Shown: one piece after another, positions 41,101 through 57,184 of the stretch
How the letters are laid out: each line of letters starts with the position of its first letter
Position numbering within the stretch: the first letter of the stretch is position 1
From: a virus
Lineage: Duplodnaviria; Caudoviricetes
DNA: 64,000 nucleotides
Virus record (IMG/VR): IMGVR_UViG_3300047160_014550
Coordinates: 2,765-66,764 of that record
Reading direction: 5' to 3' (one strand)
The notes under the pieces: model-generated
Told to the model about the DNA's origin: nothing
Seen by the model: only the letters and a program-made list of their open reading frames with translations
Databases searched by the model: none
Position numbers and translations under genes: made by a program

Positions 41101-41165
41101 GTCTTTTTTGGACAAAAAGACAAACGCCACGGATATTTTGTAAGACAAATATCCGTGGCTGTCAA
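41101..41165 (-). promoter_or_regulatory. Inverted repeats containing a promoter-like sequence
   Basis: 13-bp stem gccacggatattt/aaatatccgtggc; minus strand TTGACA-17-TACAAA; adjacent gtcttttt/aaaaagac repeat. Confidence 0.45.
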
Positions 41166-41382: not shown

Positions 41383-41465
41383 TTCATGTCTCCCCTGATA
41401 ACGCGCGACCTGTTCGCGCGACCTTGTCCCGTTGTCTCACGACGGGACAAGTGCTCGCGGACCTG

Positions 41466-41696
41466 TCAGGAATCCTTGACCGTCCAGCCAAAGGAACGCC
41501 AGCGGTCGACCGTCGGCTCGCGGCAGGAATAAAGACGGATCGTCCGCCAGCTTCGAGAAGTGTCAGGAACTGTCGGACCGAGCATGCCCGCGTCCAGACT
41601 GGTCGCAGGCCATGCGCAATCATATCTGAGCATGTCGAACGGGAAAGCTCCCCGTCCGACAACGTTGTAGGCAAAACGATGGCTGTGTACTTTCAT
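41466..41696 (-). CDS. Small early protein
   Basis: GGGGAG RBS; V.G.G.FP.DMLRYD.AWP pattern. Confidence 0.6.
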   Translation of the reverse strand: MKVHSHRFAYNVVGRGAFPFDMLRYDCAWPATSLDAGMLGPTVPDTSRSWRTIRLYSCREPTVDRWRSFGWTVKDS

Positions 41697-41774
41697 TGGT
41701 CTCCCCTTCATGCGCGACCTGTTCGCGCGATCCCGCGCCGTTGTCTCACAACGGCGCAGGCGCTCGCGGACCTG

Positions 41775-41951
41775 TCAGTCTTCAACGTCTTCTTCGACTT
41801 TATAGCAAGAGTGTTCCATATTCACTCTCACACATTCCAACTGGGCGACGGGATGCCAGATGCCCTCGATGGGATCGAAGGGCTTGTAATGGTCGCGGAC
41901 CCATTGCTGGAATGCCTTGGCTTCCTGTTCGTTAAGAGCCCGGTAGATCAT
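41775..41951 (-). CDS. Small early protein (58 aa)
   Basis: Read by hand: MIYRALNEQEAKAFQQWVRDHYKPFDPIEGIWHPV...; GGAGG RBS. Confidence 0.55.
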   Translation of the reverse strand: MIYRALNEQEAKAFQQWVRDHYKPFDPIEGIWHPVAQLECVRVNMEHSCYKVEEDVED

Positions 41952-41955
41952 CTTT

Positions 41956-42060
41956 TTAGCCTCCGTATGGGATCGTCGAAACGATCACGGTGAGAACAAA
42001 CAGCATGATCACCATGGCGGCAAGAGCCGCCACGGTGCCGTTGAGGATATTCACGGTCAT
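41956..42060 (-). CDS. 34-aa single-TM peptide
   Basis: GGGGAG RBS; MTVNILNGTVAALAAMVIMLFVLTVIVSTIPYGG. Confidence 0.55.
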   Translation of the reverse strand: MTVNILNGTVAALAAMVIMLFVLTVIVSTIPYGG

Positions 42061-42147
42061 TTCCAGTGTCTCCCCTTGATGAGCGACCATTCGCTCGAAC
42101 ATGTCCGCCCAAATAAAAGACGGACATGGGCTTGCGAATGTCTTTTT

Positions 42148-42366
42148 TCAAAGTTCGTTCATGGCACGCATCAAATACTGATCGCCGAATGCCGCAATGG
42201 ATACTGCGGCACATTCCCATTGCCGGGCGAGCCGGTAATCCTGCCATGCCGACTTGATATGCTCGGCCTTATCGGCACATATTTCCGACAGCATTTCCAG
42301 CATTGCTGGAAGGCCATCGGCATCGATGATTGCTTCCAGTATTTCCAGTTTTTTCTCGCGTGTCAT
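42148..42366 (-). CDS. Small early protein
   Basis: GGGGAG RBS; helical. Confidence 0.6.
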   Translation of the reverse strand: MTREKKLEILEAIIDADGLPAMLEMLSEICADKAEHIKSAWQDYRLARQWECAAVSIAAFGDQYLMRAMNEL

Positions 42367-42501
42367 TTTCAGTTTCTCCCCTTCATGAGCGACCATTCGC
42401 TCGAACATGCGCCGTCTTTTATTTGACGGCGCATGGGCTTGCGAGACGCGGGATTGCGCTCGACCCTGTCCCGATCTTTTATCGGGACAGGAGCTTGCGC
42501 A

Positions 42502-42774
42502 TCAGTAGTCGGACGGCAGCAGGAACGTCGTTTTTGAACGGTCCGCCTCGGTGATGATCCAGAAAACGTCGGGATCGTCCGGCAGCGGGAATACGCTCAT
42601 GAGCGATCCGCCGTCGCGAAGGTTACGGCCGTTGAGGGCCGAGTCCTCGGCGTCGCAGAGGCCCCAATCGCCCGCGACGTGGCGATTGAGGGCGGCGGAC
42701 GCGTAGTCCGCCGACACCTTGGCCATGACGGCCGGTGTCGCATAAACGGCAGACGGCGTGAACTTGACGGTCAT
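42502..42774 (-). CDS. Conserved plasmid/phage hypothetical protein
   Basis: ATPA...RH..GDWG...ED..LN...WIITEADRS.TT.LLPSDY. Confidence 0.7.
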   Translation of the reverse strand: MTVKFTPSAVYATPAVMAKVSADYASAALNRHVAGDWGLCDAEDSALNGRNLRDGGSLMSVFPLPDDPDVFWIITEADRSKTTFLLPSDY

Positions 42775-42868
42775 TTTCAGTCTCCCCTTCGAGTCGCACG
42801 ATTGCGCTCGACCATGCCGCCGCCTCGCGAGGCGGCGGCATGCGCTTGCGCACACCGTCTTTTAAAGT

Positions 42869-43771
42869 TTAAACGGCCGGACAACCCTGCTCGCGCAGGG
42901 AAGCCATGAGGTAGGGCAGCCCCTTGTCGAGGGCGCGCTTTTCGGTCTGGAAGTGCTCATCATCGGGTGCGAGCAAGAGATAGCACCCGTCGAACGCGTC
43001 GGGCTTCGACGGATAGGCGTGGCCTAGACCGTGGCCAAGCTCCGACAGGCAATGCTCGTGGCCCCACTGGGCGAAGGCGAGCCGCCGGTACATCGACGGA
43101 TGGCCCACGCCATAGGCGAGGCGCGGCAGATCAAGCGGCTGCCCGGCGTCCTTCAAGCGGACGCCGACTTGCACGCTTGGCTGGCCGCTGTAGTTGCTGG
43201 TCTGGGCGAGCGCGAGGACTTCGACCGAGAAGCCCGCGTTCTCGATGCGGTCGATGATCGCGGCCACGACGGCCGCTCTATTGACCAGCGACGAAGCTTC
43301 GATCATGGCCGCCACGCTCATGTCGCTGACCAGGGTCAGGACAGGACGCTTGCGGGACCGCACGGTGTCGAGGCGCCGCATATGCATGGGATCGCCCGCG
43401 ACGGCTCGCGGGACGCACGGGAAAGCGCCCGCGACGTCATAGCGGACGGCGCGACGCTGCATCGGATGCGCGACGTTGATCCGGTCCACGAGGGACTGGA
43501 CCTTGGTTGCGCCTTCCTGCCAGCCCTCGCGCGCGAGCATGAGGGCTTGGGTCATGGTCTTGGTCCCGCGAAACGCTTCGTCTCCGGAACCGCGACCCCA
43601 ACCGGCGTCACACCAAGCGTCGCTTGCGTGAAGCGACTTGATGTAGGACGCGAACGTCTCCGGGTTGGACCAGAGGCTTCGCACCATCCACTCGCCGGTC
43701 GCCTTGTCGCGCACATTGCGCGGCAAGAATGCGGCCAAATCGGGCGCATTGCCGATTTCTTTGGTTTTCAT
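42869..43771 (-). CDS. vWA-like partner of the AAA ATPase
   Basis: Follows AAA gene; YDVAGAFP.V.R..AGDP..M, beta-strand LTLVSD.S pattern. Confidence 0.55.
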   Translation of the reverse strand: MKTKEIGNAPDLAAFLPRNVRDKATGEWMVRSLWSNPETFASYIKSLHASDAWCDAGWGRGSGDEAFRGTKTMTQALMLAREGWQEGATKVQSLVDRINVAHPMQRRAVRYDVAGAFPCVPRAVAGDPMHMRRLDTVRSRKRPVLTLVSDMSVAAMIEASSLVNRAAVVAAIIDRIENAGFSVEVLALAQTSNYSGQPSVQVGVRLKDAGQPLDLPRLAYGVGHPSMYRRLAFAQWGHEHCLSELGHGLGHAYPSKPDAFDGCYLLLAPDDEHFQTEKRALDKGLPYLMASLREQGCPAV

Positions 43772-43853
43772 TTTTCAAGTCTCCCCTTTGTGTGCGAACC
43801 GATCGCACGATCATGTCCCGTGTCTCATGACGGGACATGCGCTTGCGTACGGT

Positions 43854-45077
43854 TTAGATCCGCGCCTCGATCCGGCGGCGCAAGTCGGCATCGATTCCGC
43901 GCCAGATAAACGCGGACTCGCATTGCTCAAAAGACCAGCCCGCACTGATCATTTTCGCCCCATTGATGCTCGCGCGAGGCGAAACGACAACGCGGGCCTT
44001 TTCGGCGAACACCGCCGCGCGGATTTTCTGGACCCGGTGGACCCATTGATCATTCCCCGCACAACGGAACTCAAGGGTTTCGTCATACGGGAACTCAATC
44101 TGGGCGAAACGGTCGATGGTCGACGCGTCCAACTGGGTCGCGCCGCAAAACATGCGATCCGTTCCCGTTCCCCACGTATTCGCGCAAGCAACGAGGCGGA
44201 AATTGACGTGCCGGCACACTGGCTCGACCCGGTCAGGGTAGGCCATGTGGCCGTTCGCGATGGCAGTATTGAGTCCCTGCTTGATCGCGGCGGCGTCCGA
44301 CGTATCCAATTCGTCCGCGCATAAGAACTTGCCGTGCTCATACGCGTCGCGGGCCGGTGTCGACTTGTAGTCGCCGTGACCGTCGAGGAATCCGACAACG
44401 TCATGCAAGCCGTTCATCGCGGCCTGGAAGCGATATTCAAGGTCCAATGCGCGAGCAATCTGCTCGCACACGGTCGATTTTCCCGATCCCGGCGGACCAA
44501 CGAGGAACACCGGGATATTGTTGGCAACCAGCGCCAGTATCTGCGGAAACAGATAGTGGCGCGGCTCATCACCCAAGTCGCGGGAAACGTCCGCGATCTT
44601 GACAACGAGATGCGACGATGGCCGCTTATCCAATTCCTCGACAACGATGGCGCGAACTTGGTCCGCATTAACGGTCCGACTTGCGACCGTTTCGACAATC
44701 GACGTCACGAGAGTCGTGAACGTCGCGTCTGCGCCGGTCGCGACGGGTTTCGGCGGCGGCGGAGCCGACTCTTGCGAGTCGCCGTCTGATCCGTCCAGTT
44801 CGTCGGATTCGAGCTTGGCAAGCTCATATTCTTGCCTGAGCTTGTCCAACGCCCTGTCGGACGTATCGTTATAAATATCGTCCAACTGACGGATCGTAAC
44901 CTTATTGGTGAATATCGCGGGGAAACCCCGCGCATTCAACCAACGCCGCACGACGGCGCGGACCGCGTTGCGCTCATCAACTGTCGCGCGCGACATGGTA
45001 TTAAGATTGCCGCGCGGACCGATCTTTTCGAGCGCGAAAGCGTCCGCCGCCTCGATTGTCATCGATGTACGTGCCAT
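43854..45077 (-). CDS. MoxR/CobS-like AAA+ ATPase
   Basis: GGGGAG RBS; VFLVGPPGSGKST, ADELD, VACANTWG, LD.STIDRF. Confidence 0.85.
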   Translation of the reverse strand: MARTSMTIEAADAFALEKIGPRGNLNTMSRATVDERNAVRAVVRRWLNARGFPAIFTNKVTIRQLDDIYNDTSDRALDKLRQEYELAKLESDELDGSDGDSQESAPPPPKPVATGADATFTTLVTSIVETVASRTVNADQVRAIVVEELDKRPSSHLVVKIADVSRDLGDEPRHYLFPQILALVANNIPVFLVGPPGSGKSTVCEQIARALDLEYRFQAAMNGLHDVVGFLDGHGDYKSTPARDAYEHGKFLCADELDTSDAAAIKQGLNTAIANGHMAYPDRVEPVCRHVNFRLVACANTWGTGTDRMFCGATQLDASTIDRFAQIEFPYDETLEFRCAGNDQWVHRVQKIRAAVFAEKARVVVSPRASINGAKMISAGWSFEQCESAFIWRGIDADLRRRIEARI

Positions 45078-45794
45078 TTTCGAGTCTCCCCTTGAAGCGA
45101 GATTGCTTCGCGATGCCGCTGATCGAACGCGGCATCGCGAAGCAAACAAGCAACGCCGCGCGATCATGCGACCGCGCGGCGTTGCCGTTTATTCGGGGAG
45201 GGGATTCGAAAATGAAAAACCTTTTCAGCTAACGGCGGGGGCGTTCCGAAAGTATAGTGGCTGCCATTCGCGGCAGGTTACCCTTTCGGCTCGTGAAATC
45301 CCTGGTTTCACCGTCGCGATTGATCATACCTGGACCTACCCTCGCGTTCGCCTCGCGTCTGATGCCTATTGCAACCGGCCACGTTTACCGGAGGCGCGAC
45401 GTACGGTGGTTGCGGGATAAATCCCGGTTCTTAGGACCGACGCGCGTCAGCTTGCCTAGTGCCGCGCGAGAGACAAGCGGCATAAAACGGCCACCCGCTA
45501 CTCTCGGAAGTGCTCTAGATCACTTGCGCACATGTTTCCTGGCGGGTGCCATAGCTGCCCCTATGCGGATGATTTGCGGCATCCTTTCGGATTTGGAACG
45601 GCGCACCCCCATGCTTGGGGCTCCGGCGCGATATTCGGCCTCGCGCGAGGCGGGCGAGCGAATTGCGGCTCGCGGGCGAAAAGGGGCGAGTTCGCCCCCT
45701 CATGAATTCCCAACTCCGTCGTTTCAGTAGCCTCAGAATACAGGAGTCGGGACATATCGCAAGTGTTCATTCGACTGATCAAATGACATTCGTT

Positions 45795-47467: not shown

Positions 47468-47620
47468 TCTTATAAGAGACTGGTCTTTTATTTATTGTTG
47501 ATCTTCTTATAAGACAATATTTATTGTTGATCATCAACAAATATCTGATCAACAAATATTTGATCTTGTTTGATGAGCAAATATTTGTTGGTCATCAACA
47601 AATATTTGATGAGCAAATAA
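47468..47620. repeat. AT-rich array of palindromes
   Basis: TCTTATAAGA x2 (47468, 47505); CAAATATTTG x3 (47553, 47578, 47599) plus a variant at 47538; TTGTTGA-tca-TCAACAA. Confidence 0.8.
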
Positions 47621-52503: not shown

Positions 52504-52754
52504 TGCTGAAGATGTATGCCAGCGGCGTGAAGGACGGCAAGCCGGTAAAGCTTGTCATACTTGGCCTGTCTTTTAAGAACTTGGAAAAACTCAAGGAAGG
52601 ACGTCCCATAAAAATCATGGGCGATACTATAGGTCTCACCAGCGATGTGGAGTTTCTTATTTTCTCTGGCGAGACCGAGCAATCGATGCACAAGGAAATG
52701 CAACAGTTCGTCGGACCGGATACAGAAGTCTATATTGATCCGAGGCTGAAATGA
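52503..52754 (+). CDS. Hypothetical protein
   Basis: LVILGLS..NL.KL..GRPI pattern; coupled start/stop. Confidence 0.6.
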   Translation: MLKMYASGVKDGKPVKLVILGLSFKNLEKLKEGRPIKIMGDTIGLTSDVEFLIFSGETEQSMHKEMQQFVGPDTEVYIDPRLK

Positions 52755-53515
52755 CCATCCACCAGATTGCCGTAGGCGACCTCCCCGGCTTCAAGATGGA
52801 CCTCGACCCGTCGTTCGCCCAGGACCGCACGCTCATCCACATGTTCAAGATGGGCATCCTCCCCGAGCCGGAAGTCATCGGCGCCATGATGCGGATCGTC
52901 CGCGAGAAAGACGTCGTGATCGACGGCGGCGCCTCGAACGGCTTCTTCACTTGTCTCCTGGCGAGTCTCGTCGGCGACGGCGGCAAGGTCATGTCCTACG
53001 AGCCGTCGCGGCAGGCGTTTAAACGTTTAAAAGACAACGTGGAAATAAATAATTTTGAACAGGTATTGCTGTCTCCGCAGATACTGTGGTCGGACGAGAC
53101 AACGGTCGATTTCACGGAGACGCTTGATACGGGACTCAGTCACGTTGCAAACACAGCCGCTGCTCCTTCGACGTATACGGCGAGTGCAACCAAGCTCAAC
53201 CGCCCTGCCCGGCTGATCAAGCTCGACATCGAGGGTTCCGAGTACGAGGCGCTCACCTCGCGCAATTACGACGGCACGCCCTACATCGTCTGCGAATTGA
53301 ACGAGATGGCCCTGCATCGTGCCGGCCGGTCGCAGGACGCGTTGCGGCAGCTCATGCGCGATCGTGGTTACCAGATGTGGCAGCTCTTCCCGGACGGAAC
53401 CCTGCCGCGCCTCGTCCCTTATCCGATCGCGCTGCATCCCAAGGCCATGAACGTCAATGTGCTGTTCGCGGCGATCAACGACATGGCCATGGTCTGGAAG
53501 GACGTCGATGGCTAG
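52751..53515 (+). CDS. FkbM-family methyltransferase
   Basis: VIDGGASNG.FT, V.SYEPS, LIKLDIEGSE. Confidence 0.85.
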   Translation: MTIHQIAVGDLPGFKMDLDPSFAQDRTLIHMFKMGILPEPEVIGAMMRIVREKDVVIDGGASNGFFTCLLASLVGDGGKVMSYEPSRQAFKRLKDNVEINNFEQVLLSPQILWSDETTVDFTETLDTGLSHVANTAAAPSTYTASATKLNRPARLIKLDIEGSEYEALTSRNYDGTPYIVCELNEMALHRAGRSQDALRQLMRDRGYQMWQLFPDGTLPRLVPYPIALHPKAMNVNVLFAAINDMAMVWKDVDG

Positions 53516-53822
53516 AGAGACCGACGAGCACTTCTTCACGTTCCATCCCGACCGGCAGATCCGCATCCGCCTGCCGGAGGGCAACGAATGCCAGAACGAG
53601 TTCCGCTCGCTCGGCGACCACAACGCCGCGCGCCGCCGGATTCTCGTCTACCGGGTGCCCAAGGACAACCCGTACTACGACCCGAATAAAAGACCGTTGT
53701 TGAAAATTCCCTTCTTGCTTTTCTCGGAGGAAAGTGTAGAGGATACTGATGAGATTCTTCTTCCCATCCTCCATGAGATCATGATGGACGCTGCCAAAAA
53801 TGCCCGCAAAACTCGACCTTAG
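53508..53822 (+). CDS. Hypothetical protein
   Basis: Coupled to upstream stop; typical codon usage. Confidence 0.55.
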   Translation: MARETDEHFFTFHPDRQIRIRLPEGNECQNEFRSLGDHNAARRRILVYRVPKDNPYYDPNKRPLLKIPFLLFSEESVEDTDEILLPILHEIMMDAAKNARKTRP

Positions 53823-54399
53823 TAATCGGCAATTCGGCAGATTGTGGGTTACCGCTAAAGTAGAAAGTCGTTGGCGCGGTGATAGAAAGCGGCGTTTTTG
53901 GCTGTGCCAGTGTACTTGCGGGCGTGAGATATGGGTTGATTGTTCTAATTTGGTGATAGGCAATTCTACAAGTTGTAATATCTGCTGCAAAGGCACACAT
54001 AGATTAAGCTCGACGCTGACGTATAGAGTATGGGCTAACATGCTGAGCCGCTGCCGCGATTCCAATAACGACGGTTATTACTTGTACGGAGGTCGAGGCA
54101 TCAAGGTGTGCGATCGATGGATCAACTTTGAAAATTTTCACGCTGATATGGGCAATAAGCCCATAGGGCGTTCCATAGATCGTATTGATAGTGACGGTGA
54201 CTATGAACCGGCTAATTGTCGTTGGGCTACTCCGAAAGAGCAGGCAGCTACTCGGCGGTCGACAAGGCTGTCCTTTGAAAAAGCCAAGCAGATCAGGCAG
54301 TTATATAAGGACGGCATGATAAAAGCGAACATTGCGAGGCAGTTTGGTGTTTCGTTCGCTGCCATCTGCCGCGTGCTGGATGGCAGTAGATGGGTATGA
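53800..54399 (+). CDS. HNH homing-endonuclease-like protein with C-terminal HTH
   Basis: FGRL.V, WLCQC.CG, Y..W..M..RC, YGGRGI.VC.RW..F..F..DMG, SIDRID.DGDYEP.NCRWAT; low GC. Confidence 0.85.
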   Translation: MPAKLDLSNRQFGRLWVTAKVESRWRGDRKRRFWLCQCTCGREIWVDCSNLVIGNSTSCNICCKGTHRLSSTLTYRVWANMLSRCRDSNNDGYYLYGGRGIKVCDRWINFENFHADMGNKPIGRSIDRIDSDGDYEPANCRWATPKEQAATRRSTRLSFEKAKQIRQLYKDGMIKANIARQFGVSFAAICRVLDGSRWV

Positions 54400-54401
54400 G
54401 T

Positions 54402-54553
54402 TCCGGTGTCGCCATGGAGTCCCAAGCCTGCACGTTTCCCGTGTGACACCGGGAAGTCCCGTCCATCGCGTGCGGTTGGCGGGAGGGCTGTACGCGCAGC
54501 CTGAAGGGAGGTGCCGGAGCGCGGTAGGCTCTTGAGATCCGGCATCTCCCACG
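54402..54553 (+). ncRNA. Structured RNA candidate, copy 1
   Basis: Successive stems; core GGCTGTACGCGCAGCC (54486-54501) then GGGA-stem-TCCCACG. Confidence 0.5.
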
Positions 54554-54606
54554 TGTTAATGCCAAAATTCCACACGGCTGCGGAATTTAAAAGGGGAGAC
54601 AGATCA

Positions 54607-54822
54607 ATGGCATGGACGAAATCGGTGTATTCCTCGATGATCGATGAAATCTCTTACGACGAGGACCGCAAGGTCATGGCCGTGAAATTCTCCAAGGGCG
54701 GCCTCTACGAGTACGAGGGCGTCTCGGAGGACGTCGCGAGCGCCCTTGCCAGCGCCCCGTCGGTCGGGCAGATGTTCCTCTCCGACATCCGCAACAGCTA
54801 CACGGCGAAGCGCATCCGATGA
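54607..54822 (+). CDS. KTSC-domain protein
   Basis: SS.I..I.YD......V.F..G..YEY.GV...V...L..APS.G.....IRN.Y; GGGGAG RBS. Confidence 0.85.
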   Translation: MAWTKSVYSSMIDEISYDEDRKVMAVKFSKGGLYEYEGVSEDVASALASAPSVGQMFLSDIRNSYTAKRIR

Positions 54823-55055
54823 GCGAGGTCGAGCCCTTCTCCAACATGGCGACCCGCATCGCCAACAACGCCGCCGAGCCCTTCGGCGGCGCCTGCGTGA
54901 TCGTGCCGCCCGGCGAGGTCGAGCCGATCGAGCTGCTCATCCTCGACGTGACGGCCGACCCCGACCCGGCGCAGTTTCTCGCCCTGGTCAAGTCGCGGAT
55001 CGACTTTGCGATCATTGCGATGGAGCGTAATCTCGCTACCGCAGGCCGTCGCTAA
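54819..55055 (+). CDS. Hypothetical protein
   Basis: ATGA overlap with KTSC gene. Confidence 0.6.
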   Translation: MSEVEPFSNMATRIANNAAEPFGGACVIVPPGEVEPIELLILDVTADPDPAQFLALVKSRIDFAIIAMERNLATAGRR

Positions 55056-55186
55056 AAATTCCGGCTGGCGTCCCCGTCTCCCCGACGCCGTTCGTCTGCC
55101 GGATGGCTGTACGCGCAGCCATGGAGGGACGTCGCGCCTTTATCCCATTCGGGCGCGGCGTCCCACGCGGCCCCGTCCCGGAATTT
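55056..55186 (+). ncRNA. Structured RNA candidate, copy 2
   Basis: Closing stem aaattccg/cggaattt; identical GGCTGTACGCGCAGCC (55105-55120) then GGGA-different stem-TCCCACG. Confidence 0.5.
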
Positions 55187-55230
55187 CCCCAATTATGGAA
55201 ATAAGGGGCATCTCTGTACTTTAAGGAATT

Positions 55231-55259
55231 TTGACAACTCCTTGTTCCCGCAATAGTTT
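55231..55259 (+). promoter_or_regulatory. Sigma70-type promoter for terL, probably leaderless
   Basis: TTGACA-17-TAGTTT; ATG 8 nt downstream; no SD. Confidence 0.65.
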
Positions 55260-55267
55260 CTCGCCTT

Positions 55268-57184
55268 ATGGCGGGCTGGTCCAAATCCAAGCGCACCCAG
55301 TACGAGAACGCCTTCCGCGTCTTCCTCTCGCACTGCTTCATCAACTCCAAGGAAAAGGGGTTCATGTGCCTGGGCAAGGACATGTACACCTCCCAGGAAC
55401 GTTTCATCACCTTCGTCTTCGACTGCCTCGAACGCGACATCCACAACATCTTCGTCCTGAAATCCCGTCAGCTCGGCATCACCACGATCGCCCGCGCGCT
55501 CACCACGTTCTTCCTCGGAATGTTTCGCGGCCTGCCGGGCTGCCTCGTCTTCGACTCGGCCGAGAACAAGAACACGGCCCGCGACGAACTCCTGACGATG
55601 CTCGCCGACCTCCCGGTCCAGCTTCGCTTCCCCCCGGTGAAAAAAGACAACCGCGAGGGCCTCACCCTCGCCAACGACGCCCGCATCCTGTTTAAGCACG
55701 CAGGCGTTAAAAGATCGAAAAGCACGGGGACGCTGGGGCGCTCGGTGGGTCTTGCCTTCGCCCACGTCTCGGAGATCTGCTCGTTCGACTCATCGTCCGC
55801 CGAGTCCTTGATCTCGTTCAGGAAATCTCTGGCGCAGACCAACCCTGACCGGCTTTACATCTGGGAGTCGACCGCGCGCGGCTACGTCGGGCTCTGGCAC
55901 GGCATGTGGCGCGAGGCGCTCGACGACCCCGAGCATTGCGGCTCCCTCTTCGTCGGCTGGTGGTCGCGGAACGACCAGCGCATCTCCCGCACCTCACCCG
56001 ATTGGCGGCTCTATGGCGAGATGGAGCCGACGCTCCAAGAGGCTGAACAGATCCGCCTCGTCAAGGAACAGTACGACTTCGAGGTCACCCGCGAGCAGCT
56101 CGCGTGGTATCGGCGGCAGATCGACCCCTCGGCCCGGTCGCAGGGCGACACTGACGCCGGGTTCGAGGCCGACCCGCTCAAGATGCAGGAAGACCCCTGG
56201 ACTGCCGACGAAGCGTTCCAGCAGACCGGTTCCGTCTTTTTTCTCAACCAGAAGCTCAACGAGCAGACCCAGCAGAACGTCAGCAAGGATTTCGAGGGTT
56301 ATACCTACATTTGCGGCGTCGATTTCCTCCATACGCAGGTGTTCAAATCCCCCAACACCCGCATGCTGGAGCTGAAGGTCTGGGAGCCCCCCAGGCAGAA
56401 CGCCACCTACGTGATCGGCGTCGACCCGGCTTACGGGTCGAACGAAAAGAACGATCACTCGTGCATTCAGGTGCTTCGCTGCTGGGCCGATGGGGTGGAT
56501 CAGGTGGCGGAATATGATTCGCCCCTCATCGCCACCCACCAGCTCGCCTGGGTCATCGCCAGCCTGCTCGGCTGGTACGGTGGTCCGCCCCAGGCCGACG
56601 TACGATATATCCTCGAACTCAACGGGCCGGGCACGGCCGTCTTTAATGAATTGAACTCGCTGCGCCGCCAAGTAGAGAATGTCCACCGTGCGCCGCAGGT
56701 AGACGAGAAGGCGCTGGGCAACATCTTTCGGAACGTCAAGACGTACATTTATTCGCGGGCTGACAGCCTCGGTCCCGGTCATAACTTTCACTTTAAGACT
56801 CAGTTGCAGACCAAGATCACCTTGATGGAACGCCTGCGGGACTTCGTCCACACGGGCATCCTGCACGTGCGCTCGATCGACGCCATCGAGGACATGAAGG
56901 GTATCCGCCGCGACGGCGATTCGATAGGGGCGCCGGACGGCGTCCACGACGACCGCGTGGTCGCGCTGGGGCTGGGCTGCGAGTACTGGGATACCCGGAT
57001 ACGCCCCGGCCTGCTCAACATGAACCGGACCCGCGCGGCCGACGCCGCACGCGAGACGTCGAACCTCGCCGACCGTTACCGCCTGCTTAACAATGACATG
57101 ATGACCCAGTTCTTCAAGTCGAAGACCCACGAGCGCGTCATGCTCAAGCGGGCCGAGCTGCGCCGGCAATGGAGAGGTCGATGA
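55268..57184 (+). CDS. terL: Terminase large subunit
   Basis: LKSRQLGITT Walker A, HVSE Walker B, YIWESTA, VIGVDPAYG, HDDRV nuclease motifs. Confidence 0.92.
   Translation: MAGWSKSKRTQYENAFRVFLSHCFINSKEKGFMCLGKDMYTSQERFITFVFDCLERDIHNIFVLKSRQLGITTIARALTTFFLGMFRGLPGCLVFDSAENKNTARDELLTMLADLPVQLRFPPVKKDNREGLTLANDARILFKHAGVKRSKSTGTLGRSVGLAFAHVSEICSFDSSSAESLISFRKSLAQTNPDRLYIWESTARGYVGLWHGMWREALDDPEHCGSLFVGWWSRNDQRISRTSPDWRLYGEMEPTLQEAEQIRLVKEQYDFEVTREQLAWYRRQIDPSARSQGDTDAGFEADPLKMQEDPWTADEAFQQTGSVFFLNQKLNEQTQQNVSKDFEGYTYICGVDFLHTQVFKSPNTRMLELKVWEPPRQNATYVIGVDPAYGSNEKNDHSCIQVLRCWADGVDQVAEYDSPLIATHQLAWVIASLLGWYGGPPQADVRYILELNGPGTAVFNELNSLRRQVENVHRAPQVDEKALGNIFRNVKTYIYSRADSLGPGHNFHFKTQLQTKITLMERLRDFVHTGILHVRSIDAIEDMKGIRRDGDSIGAPDGVHDDRVVALGLGCEYWDTRIRPGLLNMNRTRAADAARETSNLADRYRLLNNDMMTQFFKSKTHERVMLKRAELRRQWRGR

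Follow-up and report, generated by a model that had tools for sequence, protein, structure and literature searches.

What are the two structured segments that frame a short gene block just ahead of the large terminase gene (terL) of an uncultured soil phage, and do they form a working unit with the KTSC-domain gene that lies between them? The genome of this phage (~66.7 kb) is known from a 66,764-bp IMG/VR virus record that has direct terminal repeats and is rated complete; the window, by which is meant the whole stretch of 64,000 nucleotides that was analysed, is bases 2765-66764 of that record, with a G+C content of 60%. The runs containing the sequence are soil metagenomes (24 soil-metagenome DNA runs with parts of it, and no RNA run among those listed), and short contigs from four such runs are identical to the window over both elements, so that they supply no natural variants. 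Cultured phages provide no DNA match and a best TerL identity of 36%; metagenomes hold more than 2,300 TerL homologues, most of them on contigs of ~60-66 kb. The genes near the elements are all on the same strand and lie in the following order:

52751-53515, + strand: FkbM-type methyltransferase gene
53457-53822, + strand: orf121
53800-54399, + strand: HNH homing-endonuclease gene with a C-terminal HTH (phrog_374, E=1e-52; HTH_7)
54593-54599, + strand: ribosome-binding site of the KTSC gene, GGGGAGA
54607-54822, + strand: KTSC-domain gene, 71 aa (PF13619, E=1.7e-17; PDB 7x8c, E=7e-11)
54819-55055, + strand: orf78
55231-55259, + strand: probable terL promoter, TTGACA (55231-55236), 17 nt, TAGTTT (55254-55259)
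55268-57184, + strand: large terminase gene, terL (phrog_2, E=1e-14)

The elements begin at, or 1-4 nt after, the upstream stop codons, and each contains two hairpins, designated P3 and P4, in the same order:

54397-54592, + strand: copy 1, whole element, from the HNH stop codon to just short of the KTSC ribosome-binding site
54486-54501, + strand: copy 1 P3, 16-nt hairpin GGCUGU-ACGC-GCAGCC with a U-G closing pair, an exact repeat
54506-54550, + strand: copy 1 P4, 13-bp stem (arms 54506-54518/54538-54550) with one G-U pair, a 19-nt loop and GGGA/UCCC closure, then ACG
55055-55188, + strand: copy 2, whole element, beginning directly 3' of the orf78 stop codon
55105-55120, + strand: copy 2 P3, the identical 16-nt hairpin with two extra A-U pairs (55103-55122)
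55126-55164, + strand: copy 2 P4, 13-14 bp stem (arms 55126-55138/55152-55164) with an 11-nt loop and GGGA/UCCC closure, then ACG

The repeat is real. An earlier note on this DNA had described an identical 16-nt hairpin, a short linker and a GGGA-stem-TCCC-ACG unit in both intergenic regions; the coordinates bear this out, and a covariance model of copy 2 alone recovers copy 1 (37 bits, E ~8e-7 in the 64-kb window). The 16-mer GGCTGTACGCGCAGCC occurs exactly at the two P3 positions; there is no third site in the window when up to two mismatches are allowed (0.12 matches expected by chance) and no further site in the whole 66,764-bp record, in which a covariance model of both copies also finds exactly two sites. 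P3 and P4 are joined by 4-5 nt, TGAA in copy 1 and ATGGA in copy 2. In a structure-guided alignment 19 of 19 pairs form in both copies: the six pairs of P3 are the same, while the 13 pairs of P4 comprise six that are unchanged, two with single-sided and five with double-sided changes, and none that is broken; controls in which the P4 partners are slid out of register are only 38-53% paired. The claim of natural covariation that had been attached to these stems stands insofar as every P4 pair is kept, but with n=2 sequences "covariation" is indistinguishable from two separate hairpins that happen to occupy the same position. What does set P3 apart is that it is identical at 16 of 16 nucleotides although the aligned core around it has diverged (in P4, next to it, 7 of 13 pairs are changed): its retention implies a specific partner and, taken with the compensated changes in P4, indicates ongoing selection. 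Beyond P3, the linker, P4 and the ACG that trails it, the two copies have no robust part in common.

Pairing is also strand-specific. When the minimum free energy (MFE) is set against that of shuffled sequences, copy 1 (54397-54592) folds at -90.7 kcal/mol (z -3.72) as the + strand and at -76.2 (z -2.19) as the - strand; the corresponding values for copy 2 (55055-55188) are -65.7 kcal/mol (z -3.47) on the + strand and z -2.21 on the - strand. The G-U pairs of P3 and P4 in both copies, and of the copy-1 hairpin P2 (below), are all on the + strand, and a hairpin scan finds both P4 stems clean on that strand only. Wobble pairs and better folding of the same strand argue for a sense-strand RNA of the packaging genes rather than a site on double-stranded DNA. 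The copies are thus supported as paralogous, strand-specific and structure-conserving elements of RNA type.

The structures outside this core are less robust, and the hairpins 5' of P3 are not alike in the two copies:

54436-54455, + strand: further copy 1 hairpin, 5' of P2
54457-54484, + strand: copy 1 P2 hairpin, 28 nt (UCCCGUC...GGCGGGA), found in the MFE and centroid structures and in every suboptimal fold listed
54565-54588, + strand: copy 1 local hairpin AAAUUCC...GGAAUUU, rival of a closing stem 54397-54405/54581-54589
55056-55064 with 55178-55186, + strand: copy 2 possible P1, AAAUUCCGG pairing with CCGGAAUUU, not robust

Of the stem ending (C/G)GGA that had been placed before P3 in both regions, copy 1 retains a clean version, which is P2; the equivalent bases of copy 2 are engaged in competing pairings. 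The outer closure, a long-range stem built from (G/A)UUCCGG and CGGAAUUU, is not robust either: in copy 1 it belongs to the MFE structure by a mere 2.5 kcal/mol over the local hairpin, and in copy 2 an alternative is favoured over the P1 fold by 6.4 kcal/mol when downstream sequence is included. Competing alternative pairings are found at the 3' ends of both copies. GGAATTT/AAATTCC heptamers are concentrated here as well: 5 of the window's 12 sites lie within 54565-55231 (~670 bp), in alternating orientation.

Do the elements belong to a known family? An Rfam 15 cmscan of positions 53500-56000, with E values up to 10, returned four chance-level matches (13-19 bits, to be set against gathering scores of 40-110), none of them on the P3-P4 cores; that of poplar-1, the weakest at 13 bits, reaches no further than the start of copy 2. 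Neither ARAGORN nor the Rfam tRNA model finds a tRNA or tmRNA in the window. The earlier note had not recognised a tRNA or a known ribozyme here; these negatives, which include the riboswitches, agree with it, and the Rfam scan that had been suggested as a check matches no family. (A hammerhead-like reading of the CUGAAG linker was considered and rejected: it applies to copy 1 only, and its core is mismatched.) The two commonplace alternatives that had been named beside it, a terminator and a REP-like element, do not fit. The sequence just 3' of P4 is ACGUGUUAAUG in copy 1 and ACGCGGCCCC in copy 2, neither of which provides the U-tract of an intrinsic (Rho-independent) terminator; a terminator scan finds none on the + strand in 53400-55700, and canonical U-tract terminators are present elsewhere in the phage (for example, at 41126-41159). 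A dispersed repeat of the REP/MITE kind is contradicted by the presence of exactly two copies in a complete record and by signature scans that yield chance matches only. The exact 16-mer has 25 loci among viral contigs, all of them chance matches in unrelated contexts, and a relaxed P3+P4 signature gives only chance matches in the same contigs. A tighter and strict signature (GGCTGT, four free loop bases, GCAGCC and then the P4 closing motifs) finds only chance matches with P4 stems of at most 7 bp in JGI metagenome contigs and 185,579 species genomes. These scans dispose of a widespread RNA family. Nor are the elements a standard component of the HNH cassette: the covariance model has no match in 80 HNH-homologue loci (HNH identity up to 56% over the best aligned segment). 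Judged by these sequence collections, the elements are restricted to this phage lineage.

The relation to the KTSC gene is decided by the relatives. An alignment of 28 TerL sequences led to a set of 80 loci at 48-57% TerL identity (one at 95%). A KTSC gene is found upstream of terL in 56 of the 80, an orf78 homologue, always between KTSC and terL, in 57, and orf121 and the methyltransferase often further upstream; the orf121-KTSC-orf78-terL block is present in 56 and is accompanied by the RNA in none. Many relatives are so compact that their gaps leave no space for such an RNA (in the locus L040 the gaps between matched genes are ~20, 10 and 60 nt): the element is dispensable for the conserved module, and the block needs no intergenic RNA. 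Blastn of the elements against the 80 loci and their intergenic gaps finds nothing significant save the downstream flank of copy 2 in one sister phage (below), the two-copy covariance model has no match in the 80 loci or in five complete relatives, and no relative has twin repeats flanking KTSC-orf78. The search for linkage to KTSC or terL that the earlier note had recommended accordingly produced no homologues, and its proposal of a functional KTSC-RNA module is not supported on these counts, nor by the protein, which is acidic (pI 5.2). KTSC is, to judge by its neighbours, a conserved protein of the packaging module; the RNA is independent of it.

Structures have been solved for relatives of the KTSC protein, namely uncharacterised proteins and the C-terminal part of a HerA-type helicase, and in the literature found its binding to nucleic acid is deduced: one paper calls it RNA-binding and another, by inference, DNA-binding (PMC9503650). 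The small acidic protein encoded by orf78 is conserved; it contains the motif FGGAxVIVPP, ends in a basic C-terminus (family consensus FGxR, or FG-R-R) and has a confident alpha/beta model from AF2 (pLDDT 89.6); the orf121 model is also confident (pLDDT 83). Neither protein belongs to a Pfam or PHROG family or finds a fold match when its AF2 model is compared with the PDB by Foldseek, and for this reason neither is assigned as the small terminase (TerS). No arginine-rich small protein is encoded near the elements.

The gaps of the block vary widely among relatives and hold extra ORFs, HNH genes (six loci) and tRNA genes; the span from orf121 to terL is therefore an insertion hotspot. The HNH gene is accessory: homologues occur in those 6 of the 80 relatives only, mostly between orf78 and terL, whereas here the gene is inserted between orf121 and KTSC, which accounts for the position of copy 1. 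Read against the gene order of the relatives, the HNH gene together with copy 1 is one insertion, between orf121 and KTSC, and copy 2 another, between orf78 and terL. Two observations on individual relatives can be recorded here. The locus L048 has two tRNA genes upstream of terL (1679-1754 and 2158-2235), one with a CUA (amber-suppressor type) anticodon and the other with an enlarged anticodon loop in which ARAGORN reads a 4-base anticodon; no clear long-range stem surrounds them. Two TerL homologues (P0078 and P0087) are 968-969 aa long, an excess of ~330 aa, and contain the homing-endonuclease/intein-type Pfam domains PF14528 and PF05204, which suggests inteins in the terL genes of some relatives.

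The sole close relative is the sister phage L029 (IMGVR_UViG_3300010361_000833; 95% TerL identity). Its collinearity with the window begins ~70 nt before terL, and its contig stops 454 nt before that gene, so that the P3 position lies beyond the contig end; an attempt to find its upstream half through the methyltransferase yielded distant matches only. The first bases of the contig, GGACGCGCGCG, pair with CGCGCGCGUCC ~340 nt downstream to form a 16-bp stem that is part of the MFE structure of L029:1-362; position and sequence identify this stem as the counterpart of copy 2 P4. Compared with L029, the window has one extra U on the 5' arm and one extra G on the 3' arm, an indel that reads as a compensated change. 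The stem encloses ~320 nt, including a tRNA-like gene (40 bits with the Rfam tRNA model) that has a 48-nt insert in its anticodon loop; downstream of this gene lies a 30-nt duplicate of the 3' side of its T-arm, which looks like an att-type duplication left by an insertion. A second genome therefore retains P4, and the stem there accommodates a large structured insert. This fits an RNA-delimiting or processing stalk; it equally fits the inverted ends of inserted DNA.

How might the elements be placed on transcripts? A promoter scan finds no promoter just upstream of either copy. The putative terL promoter scored below the threshold of a simple promoter scan; it ends 8 nt before the ATG, and terL is without a Shine-Dalgarno sequence. 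The sister phage retains both hexamers with a different spacer, and many distant relatives (within L029-L108) have TTGAC/TTGAT-type and TAnnnT-type hexamers at the same distances from terL, the σ70-like -10 hexamer ending 6-8 nt before a terL ATG that again lacks a Shine-Dalgarno sequence. From this arrangement terL is probably transcribed from a promoter of its own into an mRNA with little or no leader, and the recurrence of the layout suggests leaderless terminase mRNAs across the phage family. A terL promoter downstream of copy 2 would put that copy at the 3' end of the orf78 message and outside any terL leader. The location that the earlier note had given, just upstream of the terminase, needs qualifying: the copies do flank KTSC and orf78 ahead of terL, but copy 2 is upstream of the probable promoter of terL. 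Hairpins that serve as promoters for a phage RNA polymerase were considered and rejected, no such polymerase being found among the large ORFs tested.

Elsewhere in the genome, the - strand carries at least eight intercistronic cassettes of the form CGCRAGC-variable stem (11-13 bp)-UCGNGCG (window 41415-45680), which stand before leftward genes and are in several cases followed by GGGGAGA and an ATG. They resemble T7-style processing sites; this phage thus habitually punctuates its mRNAs with hairpins whose flanks are conserved and whose stems vary. (A different kind of repeat marks the place where the leftward and rightward gene blocks meet: at 47468-47608, inverted repeats of CAAATATTTGTTG overlap in an AT-rich cluster, a candidate origin or regulatory region.)

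The reading preferred here, at a probability of roughly 0.45, is that the elements are accessory, lineage-specific, paralogous cis-acting structured segments of a rightward (+ strand) polycistronic mRNA, in which P4 is a processing or stability stalk and P3 a recognition hairpin. We infer that the region is transcribed as one RNA and that this RNA is processed. P4 would be a stable stalk in which pairing rather than sequence is maintained, most likely acting in RNA processing or stability, as an endonuclease target or as an exonuclease barrier beside AU-rich single-stranded tracts; P3, under sequence constraint, would be a specific recognition hairpin for a protein or RNA partner. Together they might set the expression of KTSC-orf78 apart from the upstream HNH gene and from a separately promoted, probably leaderless terL. 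The dimensions of P4 speak against a processing stalk: its stem has 13-14 bp (16 bp in the sister phage), and classical RNase III substrates are longer than that, the stems of the T7 RNase III sites extending over about two helical turns.

What else could these structures be? They might be largely functionless relics of mobile or recombining DNA: foldback or inverted-repeat scars, left where HNH genes, tRNA genes and morons were inserted in a hotspot, and duplicated by recombination as an HNH cassette moved. The family-wide insertion hotspot between orf121 and terL, with its variable gaps, HNH genes and tRNAs, is congenial to this idea, as are the homologous HNH genes that relatives have in the orf78-terL gap, where copy 2 lies in the window, the 320-nt insert between the P4 arms of the sister phage, with its att-like duplication of 30 nt, and the absence of the elements from all other relatives. 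It is nonetheless unlikely: a relic does not readily account for a 16-mer perfectly kept amid divergence or for P4 changes that are compensated, there are no copies beside the 80 HNH homologues, the signature is absent from the viral, metagenome and genome collections, and no target-site duplications are seen. It is more doubtful still that the elements work as DNA, with the dyad-symmetric 16-mer and the AAATTCC/GGAATTT half-sites bound in double-stranded form by a protein: in pac/cos-type packaging (where KTSC, orf78 or another factor could be the binder), in the regulation of packaging-gene transcription, or by the HTH of the HNH endonuclease. A location immediately upstream of terL, two identical 16-bp sites with 5-bp inverted arms, the local crowding of GGAATTT sites and a KTSC protein that is called DNA-binding by inference (PMC9503650) and is conserved beside terL could all be cited for it. 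DNA sites leave unexplained why 13-bp stems differ in sequence and yet pair, and why the wobble pairs are confined to one strand; relatives have the same protein module without flanking repeats, orf121 and orf78 have no TerS-like fold or family, and KTSC is acidic.

Two further readings would keep the RNA and change its task. In one, which is improbable, it is a regulatory RNA that acts on the transcription or translation machinery, either a put/nut-like signal for processive antitermination or a translational operator in which a phage protein, perhaps KTSC itself, binds P3. Two hairpins in ~70 nt, present twice and with an identical small hairpin, recall lambda nutL/nutR boxB or HK022 putL/putR, and the competing 3'-end pairings of both copies can be counted in its favour; against this stand the lack of a promoter just upstream of either copy, of a downstream U-tract terminator, of a boxA and of an arginine-rich small protein nearby, KTSC relatives that have no hairpin, and an Rfam search without a match. 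The other, just as much of a long shot, takes the invariant P3 and variable P4 as a new cis-acting RNA signal recognised by a phage or host factor, which might modify the polymerase in put/nut-like fashion or serve as an operator for the timing of packaging-gene expression, with P4 doubling as a loading stalk that carries or releases inserted stable RNAs; it is the tRNA-like gene inside P4 of the sister phage that suggested the loading stalk.

If the elements are functional, as the preferred reading of intercistronic mRNA segments has it, they offer a compact example of how a phage keeps apart the expression of an invading HNH gene, of two conserved genes associated with packaging and of a terL with a promoter of its own, and a sequence-specific RNA hairpin, P3, for which a partner could be looked for. 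The negative finding is of value in its own right: the apparent pairing of KTSC with an RNA does not hold in this phage family.

It remains to compare the elements with known systems. Phage polycistronic mRNAs contain intercistronic stem-loop processing sites, of which the T7 RNase III sites are an example. Like them, the elements lie between cistrons as hairpins that recur on the transcribed strand, the flanking or closing nucleotides being conserved and the stems free to vary; they differ in being two only, in their 13-14 bp stem, in the invariant small hairpin to which that stem is coupled, and in that cleavage is putative. Twin cis-acting antitermination RNAs are known from lambda, as nutL/nutR (boxB), and from HK022, as putL/putR: there too one finds two copies per genome, a short hairpin RNA signal and a structure conserved between the copies. 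The elements described here, by contrast, are not promoter-proximal, are without a boxA and without downstream terminators, have no known sequence similarity to those signals, and lie in a packaging region, so that the likeness is one of layout only. The REP/BIME-, BOX- and Correia-type families are likewise short modular hairpin-forming repeats that lie just 3' of stop codons and are co-transcribed, but they number tens to hundreds of copies per host genome, as against two copies in one phage and a signature found in 0 of 185,579 species genomes. The nearest in setting are the 14 candidate structured RNAs upstream of phage terminase genes reported by Fremin and Bhatt in 2023 (PMC10690425), which are defined by covariation across many homologues and lie within 25 nt of a start codon. 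They resemble the present elements in being structured and non-coding, in coming from IMG/VR phages and in lying between genes, ahead of a large terminase gene; what is described here is instead a two-copy orphan, situated upstream of the terL promoter. Seen beside these systems, the elements are a variant of phage intercistronic RNA structure: real, strand-specific and lineage-restricted, with a putative function.
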